NCBI RefSeq assembly: GCF_988243305.1
Contig: NZ_OZ547136.1
Length of the DNA stretch: 64,000 bases
Strand: one strand, 5' to 3'
The position numbers were made by a program, and so were the translations under genes. Below the pieces are notes generated by a model. That model ran no database searches. It saw only the letters and a list, made by a program, of their open reading frames with translations, and was not told where the DNA came from. This document shows positions 42,147 to 49,459 of the stretch, piece after piece; the stretch's first letter is position 1; the number at the start of each line of letters is the position of its first letter.

Positions 42147-42418
42147 GTATTCGTATTGAAATTGGCGAACGTTATGTCGTTACCAGTGACAGCTTTCAGT
42201 TTATTCTCCACGAGAAAAAGAGAGCGGAAAGCGGTAAAAACGCCGGTCAGGAATGGCTGGCGGTGGTTGGTTATTACCCGAAATTAGGCCAGCTCGTTTC
42301 CGGCCTGATGCATCACGATATTCTGACCGGAAGCGCAAAATCTTTTGCTGATTTAAACGCGCAGGTTGAGCAACTCAGCAAGCGTTGTTCAGAGGCTTTT
42401 GGCTCATATGGCCGTTAA
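42143..42418 (+). CDS. Hypothetical early protein (orf83-position)
   Basis: 91-aa ORF overlapping gpA start. Confidence 0.45.
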   Translation: MSIRIEIGERYVVTSDSFQFILHEKKRAESGKNAGQEWLAVVGYYPKLGQLVSGLMHHDILTGSAKSFADLNAQVEQLSKRCSEAFGSYGR

Positions 42419-44684
42419 AGCCTCCGGGCGTTTTGTCCCTCCGTCAGCATTTACCGCAGGCACCGGTAAGGCGTTTACCGGTGCTTATGCATGGAACGCG
42501 CCACGCGAGGATGTCGGGCGCGAAAGACCTCTTACACGTGACGAGATGCGTCAGGTGCAAGGTGTTTTATCCACGATTAACCGCCTGCCTTACTTTTTGC
42601 GCTCGCTGTTTACTTCACGCTATGACTACATCCGGCGCAATAAAAGCCCGGTGCACGGGTTTTATTTCCTCACATCTACTTTTCAGCGTCGTTTATGGCC
42701 GCGCATTGAGCGTGTGAATCAGCGCCATGAAATGAACACCGACGCGTCGTTGCTGTTTCTGGCAGAGCGTGACCACTATGCGCGCCTGCCGGGAATGAAT
42801 GACAAGGAGCTGAAAAAGTTTGCCGCCCGTATCTCATCGCAGCTTTTCATGATGTATGAGGAACTCTGCGATGCATGGGTTGATGCGCATGGTGAAAAAG
42901 AATCGCTGTTTACGGATGAGGCGCAGGCTCACCTGTATGGTCATGTTGCTGGCGCTGCACGTGCTTTCAATATTTCCCCGCTCTACTGGAAAAAATACCG
43001 TAAAGGACAGATGACCACGAGGCAGGCATATTCTGCCATTGCCCGCCTGTTTAACGATGAGTGGTGGATTCATCAGCTTAAAGGCCAGCGTATGCGCTGG
43101 CATGAGGCGTTACTGATAGCTGTCGGGGAGGTCAATAAAGACCGTTCTCCTTATGCCAGTAAACACGCCATTCGTGATGTGCGTGCGCGCCGCCAGGCAA
43201 ATCTGGAATTTCTTAAATCGTGTGACCTTGAAAACAGGGAAACCGGCGAGCGCATCGACCTTATCAGTAAGGTGATGGGCAGTATTTCTAATCCTGAAAT
43301 TCGCCGGATGGAGCTGATGAACACCATTGCCGGTATTGAGCGTTACGCCGCCGCAGAGGGTGATGTGGGGATGTTTATCACGCTGACCGCGCCGTCAAAG
43401 TATCACCCGACACGTCAGGTCGGAAAAGGCGAAAGTAAAACCGTTCAGCTTAATCACGGCTGGAACGATGAGGCATTTAATCCAAAGGATGCGCAGCGTT
43501 ATCTCTGCCGTATCTGGAGCCTGATGCGCACGGCATTCAAGGATAATGATTTACAGGTCTACGGTTTGCGAGTCGTCGAGCCACACCACGACGGAACGCC
43601 GCACTGGCATATGATGCTTTTTTGTCATCCACGCCAGCGTAACCAGATTATCGAAATCATGCGTCGCTATGCGCTCAAAGAGGATGGCGACGAAAGAGGA
43701 GCCGCGCGAAACCGTTTTCAGGCAAAACACCTTAACCGGGGCGGTGCTGCGGGATATATCGCGAAATACATTTCAAAAAACATCGACGGCTATGCACTGG
43801 ATGGTCAGCTCGATAACGACACCGGCAGGCCGCTGAAAGACACTGCAGCGGCTGTTACCGCATGGGCGTCAACGTGGCGCATTCCGCAATTTAAAACGGT
43901 TGGCCTGCCGACAATGGGGGCTTACCGTGAACTACGCAAATTGCCTCGCGGCGTCAGCATTGCTGATGAGTTTGACGAGCGCGTCGAGGCTGCACGCGCC
44001 GCCGCAGACGGTGGTGATTTTGCGCTGTATATCAGCGCGCAGGGCGGGGCAAATGTCCCGCGCGATTGTCAGACTGTCAGGGTCGCCCGTAGTCTGTCGG
44101 ATGACGTTAACGAGTACGAGGAAGAAGTCGAGAGAGTGGTCGGCATTTACGCGCCGCATCTCGGCGCGCGTCATATTCATATCACCAGAACGACGGACTG
44201 GCGCATTGTGCCGAAAGTTCCGGTCGTTGAGCCTTTGACTTTAAAAAGCGGCATCGCCGCGCCTCGGAGTCCTGTCAATAACTGTGGAAAGCTCACCGGT
44301 GGTGATACTTCGTTACCGGCTCCCACACCTTCTGAGCACGCCGCAGCAGTGCTTAATCTGGTTGATGACGATGTTATCGAATGGAATGACCCGGAGGTCG
44401 TGAGGGCGCTCAGGGGCGCATTAAAACACGACCGGAGAACGCCAAACCGTCAGCAAAGAAACGGAAGCCCGTTAAAACCGCATGAAATTGCACCATCGGC
44501 CAGACTGACCCGGTCGGAACGATTGCAAATTACCCGTATCCGCGTTGATCTCGCTCAGAACGGTATCAGGCCGCAACGATGGGAGCTTGAGGCGCTGGCG
44601 CGTGGCGCGACCGTAAATTATGACGGGAAACCTTTCACTTATCAGGTCGCTGATGATTGGCCGGGATTTTTGTTACCCATTTGA
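42408..44684 (+). CDS. A: P2 gpA-like rolling-circle replication initiator
   Basis: From MAVKASGRFVPPSAF…; HWHMMLF HUH-type motif. Confidence 0.9.
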   Translation: MAVKASGRFVPPSAFTAGTGKAFTGAYAWNAPREDVGRERPLTRDEMRQVQGVLSTINRLPYFLRSLFTSRYDYIRRNKSPVHGFYFLTSTFQRRLWPRIERVNQRHEMNTDASLLFLAERDHYARLPGMNDKELKKFAARISSQLFMMYEELCDAWVDAHGEKESLFTDEAQAHLYGHVAGAARAFNISPLYWKKYRKGQMTTRQAYSAIARLFNDEWWIHQLKGQRMRWHEALLIAVGEVNKDRSPYASKHAIRDVRARRQANLEFLKSCDLENRETGERIDLISKVMGSISNPEIRRMELMNTIAGIERYAAAEGDVGMFITLTAPSKYHPTRQVGKGESKTVQLNHGWNDEAFNPKDAQRYLCRIWSLMRTAFKDNDLQVYGLRVVEPHHDGTPHWHMMLFCHPRQRNQIIEIMRRYALKEDGDERGAARNRFQAKHLNRGGAAGYIAKYISKNIDGYALDGQLDNDTGRPLKDTAAAVTAWASTWRIPQFKTVGLPTMGAYRELRKLPRGVSIADEFDERVEAARAAADGGDFALYISAQGGANVPRDCQTVRVARSLSDDVNEYEEEVERVVGIYAPHLGARHIHITRTTDWRIVPKVPVVEPLTLKSGIAAPRSPVNNCGKLTGGDTSLPAPTPSEHAAAVLNLVDDDVIEWNDPEVVRALRGALKHDRRTPNRQQRNGSPLKPHEIAPSARLTRSERLQITRIRVDLAQNGIRPQRWELEALARGATVNYDGKPFTYQVADDWPGFLLPI

Positions 44685-44940
44685 GTAAAAATACAGCGTG
44701 ATTTTATATGTCTTTGAATGGATTATGCGAAACACCTCTAAGGTAGATGAGGAGCAATAGCGTGTTGAATCAGAAGGCTAAATTGTATTGAATCGTTAGC
44801 ATGTAATTGAAGGCAGCTATTTGATTCGAGTCATAAAAGAGCATCTATTTCGGTTAATAAAACCATTGCGAGTGACTTTATGTCGAAGCATAATTCATCT
44901 CGAGCGAAGTCTTGCTAGTCTTTCATCGGATTGATGACGG

Positions 44941-44975
44941 GCGCAAAAAAACCACCCTGGCAGGTGGTTTTTTTG
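44941..44975. terminator. Bidirectional intrinsic terminator (A-run/hairpin/T-run)
   Basis: aaaaaaaccaccctggcaggtggtttttttg. Confidence 0.6.
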
Positions 44976-44976
44976 T

Positions 44977-45090
44977 TTGAAGCATACTAAAGAAAAATAC
45001 TTACATGGATATTACTGACGTTTACTGACAAACCACTCGGACTACCATATGGATAGCCAAAGAGGGCCAGAACGAGAATGCAGTAATAGC
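44977..45090 (-). CDS. Candidate small protein (37 aa, MKKCYYCILVLALFGYPYG…) with strong SD
   Basis: AGGAGG 4-5 nt upstream of ATG on minus strand; below ORF-track size cutoff; ends at bidirectional terminator. Confidence 0.3.
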
Positions 45091-45822
45091 ACTTCTTCAT
45101 ATCGCCTCCTGTAAGCAGAGGGCAATTTCCGCCGATATATGCGCTTCTAAGGCGGAGTGACTATTGAGCGAAGTCTTGCCCTGAAATAATGCTCTGTTTA
45201 AACGCAAAGTGATCTGGCATATCACCGAACAGAGGACCTGAACAACACAACATATAGTATGTCGTTGTTTCTGGTTGCATTTTATGTTGTGTAATACTGG
45301 TTTTGCATCAAGGATGTTTGAGCTTTTTTTGATATAGCTCAAAGTAAAAAGCAGAGACTACGGATGATAAGGTCTTGAAAGCAATGTAAATTTTTTAAAG
45401 TTGTGAGTGGCTAGAAATGCACAGTTTCAATATGGCGGATTTAAACAAGTAATTAAAAATAGCGACACAAATTCCAATAAAATCATTAAGTTGCGTTTTC
45501 TGTGGAAACTTCGGTGACTCTGAAATTTTCTTTTAGTATCGCTGAGGTTTAACAACTCGCTGCGCAAGTAGTTAGTGTTTTTTTTAACTCAATATTCTGA
45601 TTTATAAGGTTTTTTATAAATCGTGGGCTGGTTGCGCATATTCATCTCGTGTTATCAGCAAAGATAAGCTCTATATGCAGAACTGAATGCATATATGATG
45701 TCGAAAATGTTATGGGAAAACGTGGATTAGTGTTATAGTAATGGCTGAAAAACAGCCTTGACATAAAATAACAACTGTGATATGGCTGTGCATACTTAAC
45801 TTTTTTAACGTAGGAGGCAACC

Positions 45823-46308
45823 ATGAGCTATGCAGCTAAAAAACTGCTTGACCGCTATTGGGATCGCCGACTACCTGTCGATCCGTTTAAGCTTGCTAAA
45901 GCGTGGGGTGCTCGTGTTGAAGCACTTGAGGAATCGGCTTATAACAACGATGGGTTAAGCGGTCTGGCTGTCATCAAAAAGGGTGTCCATAGGATTTATT
46001 TTGATTCTAGTGAACATTCTAATCGTCAACGTTTTACTGTTGCACACGAGTTAGGTCATCATGTGCTGGGGCATACCCAGGACGGAGAGTACCATCGGGA
46101 TAATGTCGGGAATTATTCAACAGGTGCTCGTGATTACCGTGAGGTTGAAGCAAACAAGTTTGCTGCTGAGTTGTTAATGCCTGAGTCTGCTATACGTCAA
46201 TTGGTATCCAGAGAAGGTATTGATAGCACTTTGAGATTAGCAAGCATCTTTAATGTATCAGAAGCCGCTATGCATTGGCGCTTAAAGAGCTTAGGAATGG
46301 CTTATTAA
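45823..46308 (+). CDS. ImmA/IrrE-family Zn metallopeptidase (DUF955-like)
   Basis: HEXXH motif HELGHHVLGH; strong SD AGGAGG; AT-rich cargo gene at P2 tin/old position. Confidence 0.7.
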   Translation: MSYAAKKLLDRYWDRRLPVDPFKLAKAWGARVEALEESAYNNDGLSGLAVIKKGVHRIYFDSSEHSNRQRFTVAHELGHHVLGHTQDGEYHRDNVGNYSTGARDYREVEANKFAAELLMPESAIRQLVSREGIDSTLRLASIFNVSEAAMHWRLKSLGMAY

Positions 46309-46374
46309 TTAGCCTTTAACTTTTAACCTGTTTAAAATCACCTTTACGTTTGTACATGTAAGGGTGATTTTTTT

Positions 46375-46974
46375 ATGGCTGATATTGATTTATCTGGACA
46401 GTCCCCAGAGCAAGGAACCACTCCTAAGGGCGATTTAGATCCTGATATCCTTATAAGGCGAGATAGACGGGATGGTATAGAGCGTAGAAGTATGCGATTA
46501 GTGCTCTCTGCCGTTGTGCTTTGTTTTGCTTGTACATTTCTATGGCAGGGGCTTAACTTTGCTTTGGCTGTTGGAAATGGCTTGCTGGAAGCGAAAAGCA
46601 GTATTGCCGCAGCGATAACACAAAAAGTAGATACACAAACTTGTGTTTCAGCAGAAAAATGTTCTGCTTTATCTTCGGATCCGAAGATGGCTGATGAGAG
46701 GATAACACCATCTTCAGACACTAATAAAGTTAGAAAATCTATTTCTGGTTTATCCACCGATTGGTTATCGGCCAGTTCTCTAATAGCTATTGTTGCATTC
46801 ATCCTTGGTGTGGGTTTAACTTTGCTTTTGACTCTTCTTAAATCAGCATTTCAACACCCGACAGATAAAGACTTTAGAACAAAGTCGACATCTAATACTA
46901 TTGAGTTGGCCACGCCAATCAGTGAATTAATAATTGGTGTTCTGAATATAATTAAAGACAAACTATCTAAGTAA
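46375..46974 (+). CDS. Small membrane protein (two predicted TM helices), co-directional with the metallopeptidase
   Basis: Hydrophobic stretches LVLSAVVLCFACTFLWQGLNFALAVG and LIAIVAFILGVGLTLLLTLL; 66-nt gap after upstream gene. Confidence 0.5.
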   Translation: MADIDLSGQSPEQGTTPKGDLDPDILIRRDRRDGIERRSMRLVLSAVVLCFACTFLWQGLNFALAVGNGLLEAKSSIAAAITQKVDTQTCVSAEKCSALSSDPKMADERITPSSDTNKVRKSISGLSTDWLSASSLIAIVAFILGVGLTLLLTLLKSAFQHPTDKDFRTKSTSNTIELATPISELIIGVLNIIKDKLSK

Positions 46975-47056
46975 AGCATTAGTTGTGATTTTTTATTGGT
47001 TTTAGTGATAATACATCTCCAGTACTTATTGTTACTGGAGAGTATTTTTAGTCGTT

Positions 47057-47998
47057 TTATATTTTTAATGTTAGTGAATGATATTCACGAGAGTTCACGT
47101 TCGATGTGATGTAATCGGGGGCGTTAACACCAAGAATCGCAACGAGTAATCGGCAAATTAAAGCCTGCATTTGTTGTAATATGTCATCTCCATATTGATA
47201 ATTGTTAATAGTGGTAAAGCCAAGTGGTTGACCATGAAACATAGCTTCATGAAAGTTTTCATTGCGGATGTTTGTAATGTTTTTTTTACCTGTAACCCAT
47301 GATGGTCGTGGTATTCCATAAGTTTTGCAGATCCACTTCAAGCGCCTGGAGTGATTTAGAGTCTTTTCTGTACACTTGTTCTTTTCTGCCCATGTTAAAG
47401 CAAAGCAACTATCCAGTGCCATATAAAGATACTGGAATTTTTCGAAGCTAAGGTATTGTGGGTTTTGGGATAAAAATAGTGCATGCACTATTGCTGCTAT
47501 ATTTATTGGTGCGTGTTTGGTTTTTGTCTCGCTAGACATGTATTTGAGTGCTAATTCTATAACCTCTTTTTCAGAGCACTTGACCAGAATAAAGTCAGTT
47601 AATTTGCTGGGTTTTATTGGGGTTGCGTCTAAAAAACCGGCATCAGTAGTTGTTAATCTTATCCCTTTGAAAAAAGACAGACACCACACAGCAAAATTGA
47701 GAGTTTCTAGTGAAGATGTATTTTTTAATTTTAGTGAGTGTGTTTTGGGTAAGCCAAATACTCGTTGGCTAAAAGGCATTGTGGATATGCCTCCATTGAG
47801 GTTATATACTTCTTGGTTTCCTGGGTATATCCAACCGTTAATAACATTTCTGTGATTGTTTATAAGATTTGTTTTTTCCGCTAGACCGGGTAAAGTAAGT
47901 AAAGAAAAATCATCAGTTTCAACGTTAACTTCTACTGGATAGTATCCAAACTCAGCTTCAATATCATTGGATTGCTGTTCGTCAACTTTACCTTGCAT
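47057..47998 (-). CDS. Hypothetical protein, 313 aa, AT-rich, no recognised domain
   Basis: ORF with GGAG SD; transcribed from cos side toward gpA. Confidence 0.5.
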   Translation of the reverse strand: MQGKVDEQQSNDIEAEFGYYPVEVNVETDDFSLLTLPGLAEKTNLINNHRNVINGWIYPGNQEVYNLNGGISTMPFSQRVFGLPKTHSLKLKNTSSLETLNFAVWCLSFFKGIRLTTTDAGFLDATPIKPSKLTDFILVKCSEKEVIELALKYMSSETKTKHAPINIAAIVHALFLSQNPQYLSFEKFQYLYMALDSCFALTWAEKNKCTEKTLNHSRRLKWICKTYGIPRPSWVTGKKNITNIRNENFHEAMFHGQPLGFTTINNYQYGDDILQQMQALICRLLVAILGVNAPDYITSNVNSREYHSLTLKI

Positions 47999-48236: not shown

Positions 48237-48255
48237 GGCGAGGCGGGGAAAGCAC
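48237..48255. other. P2-type cos site (19-nt cohesive end GGCGAGGCGGGGAAAGCAC)
   Basis: Exact 19-mer as recalled for P2 cos, in GC-rich region upstream of Q. Confidence 0.65.
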
Positions 48256-48424: not shown

Positions 48425-49459
48425 TCAGCCGTTGTCGGTGTCCAGTGAGTAGTTTTTAAAGCGGATGACCTCCTGACCGAGCCAGCCGTTTATCTCGCGG
48501 ATCCTGTCCTGTAACGGGATAAGCTCATTGCGGACAAAGACCTTTGCCACTTTCTCAATATCACCCAGCGACCCGACGTTCTCCGGCTTGCCGCCCATCA
48601 ACTGAAAAGGGATGCGGTGCGCGTCCAGCAGGTCTGCGGCGCTGGCTTTTTTGATATTAAAAAAATCGTCCTTCGTTGCCACTTCACTGAGCGGGATAAT
48701 TTTAATGCCGTCGGCTTTCCCTTGCGGGGCATAGAGAAACAGATTTTTAAAGTTGTTGCGGCCTTTCGACTTCACCATGTTTTCGCGGAGCATTTCGATA
48801 TCGTTGCGATCCTGCACGGCATCAGTGACGTACATGATGTATCCGGCATGTGCGCCGTTTTCGTAATACTTGCGGCGGAACAGCGTGGCCGACTCATTCA
48901 GCCAGGCAGAGTTAAGGGCGCTGAGATATTCCGGCAGGCCATACAGCTCCTGATTAATATCCGGCTCCAGCAGGTGAAACACGGAGCCGGGCGCGAAAGG
49001 TGTCGGCTCATGGAAGGACGGCACCCACCAGTAAACATCCTCTTCCACGCCACGGCGGGTATATTTTGCCGGTGAGGTTTCCAGTCTGATGACCTTACCG
49101 GTGGTGCTGTAACGCTTTTCCAGAAACGCATTACCGAACACCAGAAAATCCAGCACAAAGCGGCTGAAATCCTGCTGGGAAAGCCACGGGTGCGGAATAA
49201 ACGTTGAAGCCAGAATATTACGTTTGACGTAAATCGGTGAGCTGTGATGTACGGCAGCACGCAGGCTTTTTGCCAGACCGGTAAAGCTGACCGGTGGCTC
49301 ATACCATCTGCCGTTACTGATGCACTCGACGTAATCCAGAATGTCACGGCGGTCGAGTACCGGCACCGGTTCACCAAAGGTGAATGCCTCCATTTTCGGG
49401 GCGCTGGCGGTCATTTTTTTTGCCGCAGGTTGCGGTGTTTTCCCTTTTTTCTTGCTCAT
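48425..49459 (-). CDS. Q: Portal protein gpQ
   Basis: 344 aa P2 Q-like. Confidence 0.9.
   Translation of the reverse strand: MSKKKGKTPQPAAKKMTASAPKMEAFTFGEPVPVLDRRDILDYVECISNGRWYEPPVSFTGLAKSLRAAVHHSSPIYVKRNILASTFIPHPWLSQQDFSRFVLDFLVFGNAFLEKRYSTTGKVIRLETSPAKYTRRGVEEDVYWWVPSFHEPTPFAPGSVFHLLEPDINQELYGLPEYLSALNSAWLNESATLFRRKYYENGAHAGYIMYVTDAVQDRNDIEMLRENMVKSKGRNNFKNLFLYAPQGKADGIKIIPLSEVATKDDFFNIKKASAADLLDAHRIPFQLMGGKPENVGSLGDIEKVAKVFVRNELIPLQDRIREINGWLGQEVIRFKNYSLDTDNG

Follow-up and report, generated by a model that had tools for sequence, protein, structure and literature searches.

Between gpA, the replication endonuclease gene of a P2-like (Peduovirus) prophage, and the gene for an ImmA/IrrE-type protease lies the 1.1-kb stretch under study here (44685-45822); all coordinates are those of the window, by which we mean the whole 64-kb stretch of DNA that was analysed. 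The stretch has a GC content of 0.375, against 0.506 for the whole window and 0.537 for gpA, and an earlier note, made from the letters of this DNA, had read in it a 14-nt direct repeat, a bidirectional terminator and a minus-strand open reading frame (ORF) of 37 amino acids (aa) preceded by an AGGAGG Shine-Dalgarno (SD) sequence. All three are real. They belong to a conserved module of two convergent genes, one for a small RNA (sRNA) and one for a small protein, which have one terminator in common. The limits of the module were taken from alignments of prophage, Citrobacter, Klebsiella, Salmonella and metagenome copies and from the profile of variable sites, and its features are these (5'UTR, 5' untranslated region):

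44821-45392, both strands: whole conserved module (~570 nt), by the homology limits common to prophage and plasmid copies
44866-44894, plus strand: predicted sRNA promoter, -35 TTGCGA (44866-71), 17-nt spacer, -10 CATAAT (44889-94), from a promoter scan
44901-44977, plus strand: candidate antitoxin sRNA of ~75 nt with 5' seed, stem-loop 1 and intrinsic terminator; predicted start
44902-44915, plus strand: repeat copy 1, the putative sRNA 5' seed, an exact repeat that covaries with copy 2
44918-44942, plus strand: sRNA stem-loop 1, from covariation
44945-44974, both strands: bidirectional intrinsic terminator AAAAAAACCACC-CTGGCA-GGTGGTTTTTTT, read in the sequence and folded; loop CTGGCA at 44957-44962
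45100 to 44987, minus strand: gene for a small hydrophobic protein of 37 aa, a candidate toxin, MKKCYYCILVLALFGYPYGSPSGLSVNVSNIHVSIFL; SD AGGAGG at 45110 to 45105, 4 nt before the ATG
45166-45179, minus strand: repeat copy 2, the putative sRNA target in the mRNA 5'UTR, 66-79 nt upstream of the AUG at 45100
45192-45234, minus strand: two-level 5'UTR hairpin, outer stem 45192-98/45228-34, inner stem 45209-13/45221-25
45240-45270, minus strand: 5'-terminal mRNA hairpin, from predicted folds; resembles an NrdR box in the E. coli clade (ATACTATATGTTGTGT)
45279-45342, minus strand: putative promoter of the small-protein mRNA, with FNR boxes 2 and 1 and -10 TAAAAT (45284 to 45279); predicted start 45271/45272
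45342 to 45329, minus strand: FNR box 2, TTGAGCTATATCAA (TTGAG-CTAT-ATCAA), half-sites the same as in nrdDG
45311 to 45298, minus strand: FNR box 1, TTGATGCAAAACCA (TTGAT-GCAA-AACCA), similar to nrdDG box 1

The small protein, the candidate small RNA and the complementary sites

The small ORF is intact in 28 of the 28 unique prophage copies, which are at least 85% identical to one another, and its variable sites are distributed over codon positions 1, 2 and 3 as 3/0/9 (P = 0.004); no other ORF in the element has a third-position bias or comparable conservation. More distant copies encode homologues of 37-39 aa (MNKWHYCILVLALFGYPTGSQSGWSLTVSHISISFIM, MNRLCLCILVLTLFGYPVGSQSGWSVNVSHINVNISL, MDRRDCMCLFILTLISHLITGQESWMVYLNHISLTVQFY and others), for which the ratio of nonsynonymous to synonymous substitution rates (dN/dS) between clades is 0.13-0.33, with synonymous sites near saturation. 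By this codon pattern, the small ORF is a protein-coding gene under purifying selection. Its conservation in related prophages, and that of the repeat, had been proposed as a check in the earlier note, and both are found, the ORF as just described and the repeat in the covariation of its copies given below. Two further minus-strand ORFs, 45161-45280 and 45097-45342, were rejected, being neither intact across copies and clades nor biased by codon position.

The peptides follow one pattern: a basic N-terminus and a hydrophobic core of ~13 residues with an invariant cysteine, then a G-S/Q-x-S region, often with a tryptophan, and an uncharged tail in which apolar and polar residues alternate. AlphaFold2, given the peptide alignment, predicts a helix at residues 3-15 only (mean pLDDT 55). 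Four peptide variants gave no Pfam or NCBIfam match (Pfam cut-off E <= 1), and no relevant literature was found with the peptide and DNA sequence strings or with P2 and type I toxin-antitoxin (TA) terms.

The sRNA promoter, on the other strand, marks where the conserved core of the element starts; its -10 is invariant in every clade and its -35 reads TTGCG. in all save two (TTGTCT and TTGCCT), while the spacer has kept its length (17-18 nt) and diverged in sequence. The sRNA would start ~7 nt past the -10, right at the repeat, and end at the terminator, for a predicted length of 73-77 nt. Upstream, the motif TTG-N7-TCAT (TTGATTCGAGTCAT) at 44821-44834 forms the left edge of the module in every clade, ~35 nt 5' of the sRNA -35, and might be an UP element or a binding site; an AATAAA immediately 5' of the -35 is also conserved.

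The interval 44901-44980 folds at -31.9 kcal/mol (z = -5.1), and all 17 unique sRNA variants adopt one predicted three-part fold, composed of a free seed, stem-loop 1 and the terminator. The sequence of stem-loop 1 differs between clades, with compensatory changes in 6 of its 8 pairs and 85% of cells paired; its covariation score, 0.256, lies above those of all slid registers and above the shuffled value of 0.114 (0 of 500 shuffles as high). About one fifth of its pairs are G.U, which would become C.A mismatches on the other strand and are thus valid on the plus strand only. The terminator stem is invariant in the retrieved copies, an invariance to be read with the fact that most of them were retrieved with a pattern that includes the terminator, and the loop is CTGGCC in the Citrobacter copy. 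A simple consensus terminator scan missed the terminator at 44945-44974, presumably because its A and T runs pair into the stem. In Rfam, searches of the window in E-value mode returned only sub-threshold matches driven by the terminator (ColE1 RNAI, Phe leader, P9), and the covariance scan at gathering score, which the earlier note had suggested, gave no match on the module, whether in the window or at the plasmid loci.

The 64-kb window contains the 14-mer GAGCGAAGTCTTGC at exactly two places, both on the plus strand, and none of 100 shuffles contained two or more matches to it. Since copy 1 forms the sRNA 5' end and copy 2 falls in the 5'UTR of the opposite strand, the two transcripts would be complementary there. 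Both sites read GAGCGAAGTCTTG(C/T) in the E. coli, Citrobacter and Klebsiella copies (type 1), with identity extending to 14-18 nt, and both read GAGCAAAGCCTTACC in four mutually divergent loci (type 2; L137, L149, L145 and L154), giving the allele GAGCAAAGCCTTAC in place of GAGCGAAGTCTTGC. Three coordinated substitutions and no uncoordinated ones separate the two types; locus L163 has TTGT in both repeat copies, and in L002 and L150, whose two copies are a single base apart, the mismatch is a U.G wobble in the sRNA-to-mRNA sense. Cognate seed-target duplexes are predicted at -30 to -42 kcal/mol, against -15 to -23 for a type-2 sRNA on a type-1 mRNA, and a type-1 sRNA would be tolerated on a type-2 mRNA through three G.U pairs. 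Gene conversion is, in our view, no explanation for this, given how short the repeat is and how little its flanks resemble each other. On the covariation of both copies, the repeat is a putative RNA-RNA pairing site.

The two-level hairpin of the mRNA 5'UTR has six pairs with compensatory changes and 94.9% of cells paired, at a covariation score of 0.376 versus 0.132 shuffled (none of 500 shuffles as high). Only on minus-strand RNA would the G.U pairs of this hairpin hold. Its loop UGCCAG (45219 to 45214) is complementary to the sRNA terminator loop CUGGCA, and the loop UGCCA(G/A) is kept in every clade but Citrobacter (L132), which keeps four of these bases (TGGC). This suggests a second, kissing-type contact between sRNA and mRNA, the position of which would fit antiparallel pairing together with the seed site. 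Minimum-free-energy folds place the SD inside a local hairpin and predict a hairpin at the mRNA 5' end, where the type-2 copies have an unrelated GC-rich hairpin in place of 45240-45270. A plus-strand extended -10 promoter predicted at 45164-45190 was rejected, as it is not conserved outside E. coli.

Two other ways of reading the plus-strand transcript bear on these data. With its free 5' seed, stem-loop and terminator with U-tail, the RNA has the classical shape of a trans-acting sRNA, and it might be a phage or plasmid regulator acting mainly on host mRNAs, for which the match to the neighbouring 5'UTR is secondary. However, the seed covaries with the adjacent 5'UTR site inside each module and a second complementary site sets loop against loop, and we consider such a role improbable. 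Alternatively, the transcript could encode the basic 37-aa ORF at 44821-44934, which begins with TTG, so that the locus would be two convergent small-protein genes. None of the 28 prophage copies interrupts this frame, and the Klebsiella copies have a similar open one, but the frame has no third-position bias (5/7/11, P = 0.11) and a TTG start without a good SD; it is lost in the Citrobacter copy, in L163 and in the type-2 clades L137 and L145, the frames of L154 are unrelated, and the seemingly conserved residues coincide with the promoter hexamers and the seed. With the frame lost in several clades, the ORF was rejected as a gene, and a pair of protein genes is hardly credible. We retain the view that the plus strand yields an sRNA directed at the neighbouring mRNA. 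Where the earlier note had offered either a small toxin or membrane peptide or a regulatory module with a non-coding RNA, the evidence supports both as a pair, through coding selection on the one and conservation of the other; the choice between them falls away, and toxicity is a step that we infer.

A putative promoter for the small-protein mRNA

A 65-nt match to the Salmonella nrdD-treC spacer prompted a comparison with E. coli K-12, in which 45302-45398 proved to be 85.6% identical to the nrdD upstream region over 97 nt, ungapped. FNR binding at both nrdDG sites, centred at -64.5 and -33.5, was demonstrated with a 54-mer oligonucleotide (PMC10425943), and 46 of the 54 positions of that published oligonucleotide match the minus strand of the window. 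The promoter has two boxes of the TTGAT-N4-ATCAA type 31 bp apart (17-nt gap), with 13 nt between box 1 and the -10 TAAAAT; both spacings and the -10 are exactly those of nrdDG, and the upstream homology reaches to about -120. The two boxes, the two spacings and TA(A/G)AAT are retained in each of 14 representative modules. The start predicted by homology, 45271/45272, is where strong conservation of the transcribed region begins. By sequence, then, this promoter is homologous to the FNR-activated promoter of E. coli nrdDG, the genes of the anaerobic ribonucleotide reductase; transcription of the small-protein mRNA would on this basis depend on FNR, and the mRNA is probably induced anaerobically. 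Unlike nrdDG, the module promoter drives a 37-codon ORF on a mobile element, and its 5'UTR is unrelated past about +35. A minus-strand promoter predicted as TTTACA-15-TATCAT (45390-45364) was set aside, the nrdDG-homologous -10 being preferred.

The palindrome at 45239-45256 (ATACTATATGTTGTGT) matches 13 of the 16 positions of the 16-bp NrdR-box consensus and, once an insertion of 10 nt ahead of it is allowed for, lines up with NrdR box 2 of K-12 nrdDG. The prophage clade differs from nrdDG in lacking the first NrdR box: by eye, it has this one NrdR-box-like palindrome and a poor upstream box. The plasmid clades keep part of the upstream box and have an unrelated hairpin in place of the downstream one. 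Control by NrdR is thus possible in the E. coli clade and unsupported in the others.

The Citrobacter, Klebsiella and Salmonella plasmid promoters resemble Salmonella-type nrdD boxes (TTGTT...ATCAA, TTGATGCAAATCAC; L006 3998-4041, L122 2880-2925), and the E. coli prophage copy resembles the E. coli-type FNR boxes; either parallel constraint or recombination with the nrdD promoters of the hosts could explain the pattern. In the decayed prophage L011 (~4625-5955), ISVsa5 (IS4 family) has inserted in FNR box 1, at about window position 45307, and has parted the FNR boxes from the -10, which is likely a natural knockout of the small-protein promoter.

A mobile module and its neighbours

The features around the module, from gpA to the portal gene, are as follows:

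42366-44684, plus strand: gpA, replication endonuclease
44685-44820: prophage-specific spacer from the gpA stop codon to the module; variable, with no conserved ORF, and absent from plasmid copies
45401-45449: variable tail outside the module, variable across prophage copies
45450-45822: leader of the ImmA/CapP-like cargo, outside the module; boundary from the empty site L009 and other cargos
45823-46308: ImmA/IrrE-type protease of 161 aa (Peptidase_M78), the first cargo gene, between gpA and cos
48237-48255: cos, GGCGAGGCGGGGAAAGCAC
48425-49459, minus strand: portal gene, followed by a terminase gene

By megablast, 149 of 5,426 complete E. coli genomes match the stretch, one ST131 isolate among them; all matches are chromosomal, and the position is directly after gpA in every E. 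coli locus examined. Only the first ~765 nt (44685-45449) are common to most of these matches, at 86-95% identity, and the DNA downstream differs. There we find ImmA cargo (L001, L003, L005, L012), an AAA ATPase with a hypothetical protein in two versions (L002, which is E. coli KO11FL, and L010), a SIR2 protein (L007), a 333-aa protein (L008) or an IS4-family element (L011). Locus L009 (E. coli 377323_2f, 4001-5081) has no cargo at all: the ~1.08 kb between its gpA and its portal gene holds the module and cos but no annotated gene. The module is thus accompanied by five or more kinds of cargo, or by none. Within the 28 unique prophage copies, 44865-45400 is strongly conserved, while 44685-44865 and 45403-45449 are variable. 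The empty hotspot of L009 would also be a useful natural background for testing the module alone.

The module is likewise carried by plasmids. A degenerate peptide pattern, searched against species-representative genomes, gave ten chance matches and a real one, on the Citrobacter freundii contig L132, which also has an IncFII repBA pseudoknot and is therefore plasmid DNA. With the L132 copy and the window as queries, 414-423 plasmids of PLSDB match, of which 394 are Klebsiella plasmids, mostly conjugative IncFIB/IncFII(K), and the remainder come from Enterobacter, Salmonella and other genera; the Klebsiella copies are ~73% identical to the window over 44886-45393. Probing metagenomes with the terminator recovered more clades (L145, L154, L163). 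The degenerate peptide pattern found no new clade among viral contigs, and tblastn against phage records returned just three, nearly identical. Annotation passes over nearly all of these copies: the E. coli RefSeq records listed have no feature under the match, the module is unannotated in nearly all plasmid matches among those listed, and at most the small ORF is labelled a hypothetical protein, in one phage record and some GenBank entries. On the Klebsiella pneumoniae plasmid pGN-2 (L135, 4097-4184, minus strand), ~600 nt to the right of the module, there is an Rfam match to AgrB, the antitoxin sRNA of dinQ/agrB, at 45.1 bits against a gathering score of 40, which suggests a cluster of RNA-controlled small-toxin loci.

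By this distribution, the module is self-contained, mobile between prophages and plasmids, and not part of the ImmA cargo. The earlier note had counted it as hotspot cargo, an assignment that does not hold for a unit that accompanies ImmA, AAA-ATPase, SIR2 and other cargos, can stand without any, and is carried by plasmids too. The note had also described the remainder up to 45822 as AT-rich and without a convincing ORF; the composition and the lack of a conserved ORF stand, but 45180-45400 is far from featureless, as it holds the 5'UTR and the nrdDG-type FNR promoter, and the cargo-specific leader is confined to 45450-45822.

A location between gpA and cargo would also suit a regulatory leader of the hotspot cargo, or a gpA-operon terminator followed by decayed DNA in which the ORF and the repeat are fortuitous; the gpA early transcript must end, and the first terminator is the one at 44945-74. 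This is very improbable and already contradicted. The module turns up beside at least five cargos, without any, and in plasmid DNA, both its promoters point inward, away from the cargo, and the plus-strand promoter predicted at 45164-45190 is not conserved; purifying selection on the small ORF, and covariation in the RNA structures and in the repeat, oppose decay. We therefore keep to an autonomous module.

In the P2 hotspot, the module occupies the position where P2 has orf91, tin and old. Like phage morons and the tin/old cargo of P2, it has its own promoters and terminator and lies between conserved phage genes; unlike the variable hotspot cargo, it is a semi-fixed first unit, and among the 80 closest gpA relatives in IMG/VR it is the second commonest (22/80) after the orf91 type, which is there instead in 33/80. 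The C-terminus of gpA tracks what follows, reading ...PGF(L/S)LPI with the module and ...PGFSTVMEWT with the orf91 type (44670-44684; loci L042-L121), which puts the recombination junction inside the last gpA codons.

The cargo of the window (45823-47998) begins with the 161-aa ImmA/IrrE protein, which matches the PADLOC model capP at 1e-30 and also RmrA models, and continues, up to cos, with a 199-aa membrane protein and a 313-aa protein on the opposite strand, neither of which gave a family match; together the three may form a cassette for defence or regulation that is so far uncharacterised. Its leader is 74% identical to the version in L003 and L005 and has promoter-like motifs, TGtTATAGT (45731-39) and TTGACA (45760-65), conserved near 45731-45765. 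Four ORFs within 45400-45824 were rejected, since L003 and L005 have them interrupted. The SIR2 and 333-aa loci (L007, L008) have ~80 nt more of the window's cargo-side leader (45450-45527) before pre-cos sequence begins, so the boundary between backbone and cargo differs among lineages. In the window cos comes after the cargo, and in the AAA-ATPase, SIR2 and 333-aa loci (L002, L010, L007, L008) before it; the gpA-to-portal hotspot thus appears to take up insertions at two points, which flank cos.

A probable type I toxin-antitoxin-type locus

The arrangement recalls par/Fst, whose layout we used for comparison (PMC7472228). In par of the Enterococcus plasmid pAD1 (Fst mRNA RNA I, antitoxin RNA II) and the par-like loci of Firmicutes, as in the module, convergent promoters face one bidirectional terminator, and direct repeats read in opposite directions give the transcripts complementary 5' regions. 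Each encodes a small hydrophobic peptide, has one hairpin over the SD and another at the 5' end of the mRNA (both predicted here), and travels on plasmids as well as phages. Their sequences are not similar, however, and the peptide of the module has no evident PXXXG by eye and no charged C-terminal tail. The par repeats, two in number, overlap the toxin translation initiation region, whereas the module has one, with a target well upstream of the AUG, and its second contact would be the 5'UTR hairpin loop. The module further differs in its Enterobacteriaceae hosts and in the FNR boxes of its candidate toxin promoter.

Within the enterobacteria, the antitoxins of TisB/IstR-1, ZorO/OrzO, ShoB/OhsC and DinQ/AgrB bind far upstream in a long structured 5'UTR, over a complementarity of about 14-21 nt, and tisB and dinQ have a LexA-regulated promoter. 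The module resembles this class, for example TisB/IstR-1 or ZorO/OrzO, in a pairing site well upstream of the start codon. The genes of TisB/IstR, Zor/Orz, ShoB/OhsC and DinQ/AgrB are divergent and do not overlap, whereas those of the module converge and share a terminator, and its predicted regulator is FNR in contrast to LexA for tisB and dinQ. No match of the peptide or RNA to Hok/Sok, Ldr/Rdl, Ibs/Sib, TisB/IstR, ShoB/OhsC, Zor/Orz or DinQ/AgrB was found in Pfam, NCBIfam or Rfam.

A further parallel is TimP/TimR of Salmonella and E. coli, an overlooked ORF of <50 codons for a membrane-targeting protein that is repressed by an mRNA-binding small RNA (PMC7667032). The likeness is that of an overlooked enterobacterial small-protein ORF with a small RNA against its mRNA; no family match in Pfam, NCBIfam or Rfam links the two, their sequences not having been compared directly, and TimP/TimR was described from Salmonella and other enterobacteria, not from phages or plasmids.

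We think it rather probable that the module is a par/Fst-like locus of the type I TA type, and a member of no described family. A small (<~60 aa) hydrophobic protein is encoded beside an RNA gene, and the RNA has antisense complementarity to the mRNA in a 14-18 nt seed, in a pair of loops and in the terminator overlap, where the two would pair. The proposal draws on coding constraint, two conserved promoters, two RNA structures, seed-target covariation, promoter homology and mobility, all of which have support from sequence comparison. The nrdDG-like promoter would start a ~330-nt minus-strand mRNA near 45271, consisting of a 172-nt structured 5'UTR, a hairpin that occludes the SD, the 37-codon ORF and the shared terminator, and the sigma-70 promoter TTGCGA-17-CATAAT would start the ~75-nt plus-strand sRNA at about 44901, ending at the same terminator. 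The RNAs could then meet at three places: the 14-18-nt 5' seed with repeat copy 2, the terminator loop CUGGCA with the 5'UTR hairpin loop UGCCAG, and the sRNA 3' end, fully complementary to the mRNA terminator. Pairing would trigger cleavage or block translation, perhaps at a standby or entry site, or do both, and the peptide would be held off unless the mRNA outruns the sRNA, as in anaerobiosis via FNR, or the module is lost. Its role might lie in maintenance of the element, in defence or in anaerobic physiology.

Several points weigh against this. In contrast to Fst or Ldr, the peptide has a short hydrophobic core, of about 13-15 residues, and no charge at its C-terminus; the AlphaFold2 model is confident solely for helix 3-15, the peptide matches no toxin family in Pfam or NCBIfam and the RNA no Rfam antitoxin. 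The transcription starts, the transcripts and FNR control are all read from the DNA, and repression by the sRNA and toxicity of the peptide are predicted from it likewise. The seed target ends 66 nt upstream of the AUG, off the ribosome-binding site, which makes the mode of repression a guess, and the seed-target covariation comes from just two main alleles and one minor one, with all changes transitions, such that a type-1 sRNA could still pair with a type-2 mRNA through G.U. An FNR-regulated promoter, finally, suits a physiological protein as well as it does a toxin.

This last point leads to the main rival, in which the sRNA and small-protein pair is real and the peptide non-toxic: an anaerobically induced membrane protein under antisense control, with FNR as inducer, a physiological or lysogenic-conversion role, and the sRNA to set a threshold. 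It would account for a promoter homologous to that of nrdDG, a regulated housekeeping promoter, for a short hydrophobic segment that looks like a signal peptide and leads into uncharged sequence in which polar residues alternate with apolar ones, and for the lack of similarity to known toxins in Pfam and NCBIfam. It sits less easily with carriage by prophages and conjugative plasmids, with the convergent layout, shared terminator and repeat that are the hallmark of par-type type I TA, and with the AgrB-type antitoxin RNA 600 nt away on the Klebsiella plasmid, which suggests a TA neighbourhood. We regard a harmless protein as unlikely and continue to favour the type I TA-type locus.

A bolder version, tentative and in our estimation unlikely to hold as a whole, is that an unrecognised type I TA family captured the oxygen-responsive nrdDG promoter of its host. 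The toxin message would then be made only in anaerobic cells, as in the gut, against an always-on sRNA acting through seed and kissing loop; the seed alleles would be specificity groups, and the module would confer anaerobiosis-specific addiction or abortive infection in the P2 defence hotspot. If so, the specificity groups could let the modules of P2-type prophages and of Klebsiella resistance or virulence plasmids coexist.

The map of the P2 hotspot is refined on two points: in this lineage, the ~0.7 kb that directly follows gpA is taken up by a conserved module and not by cargo, and cargos lie on either side of cos. If confirmed, the module would represent a TA-type family of Enterobacteriaceae that current annotation omits, and an enterobacterial case of the par-type convergent architecture with a shared terminator. 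It is a common module, with about 390 large conjugative plasmids of Klebsiella among its carriers besides the E. coli genomes. We know of no other type I toxin with a promoter recognisably copied from an FNR-dependent host promoter. The link to oxygen makes an action specific to the anaerobic gut testable, and the two seed alleles may serve as a natural experiment in antitoxin specificity.

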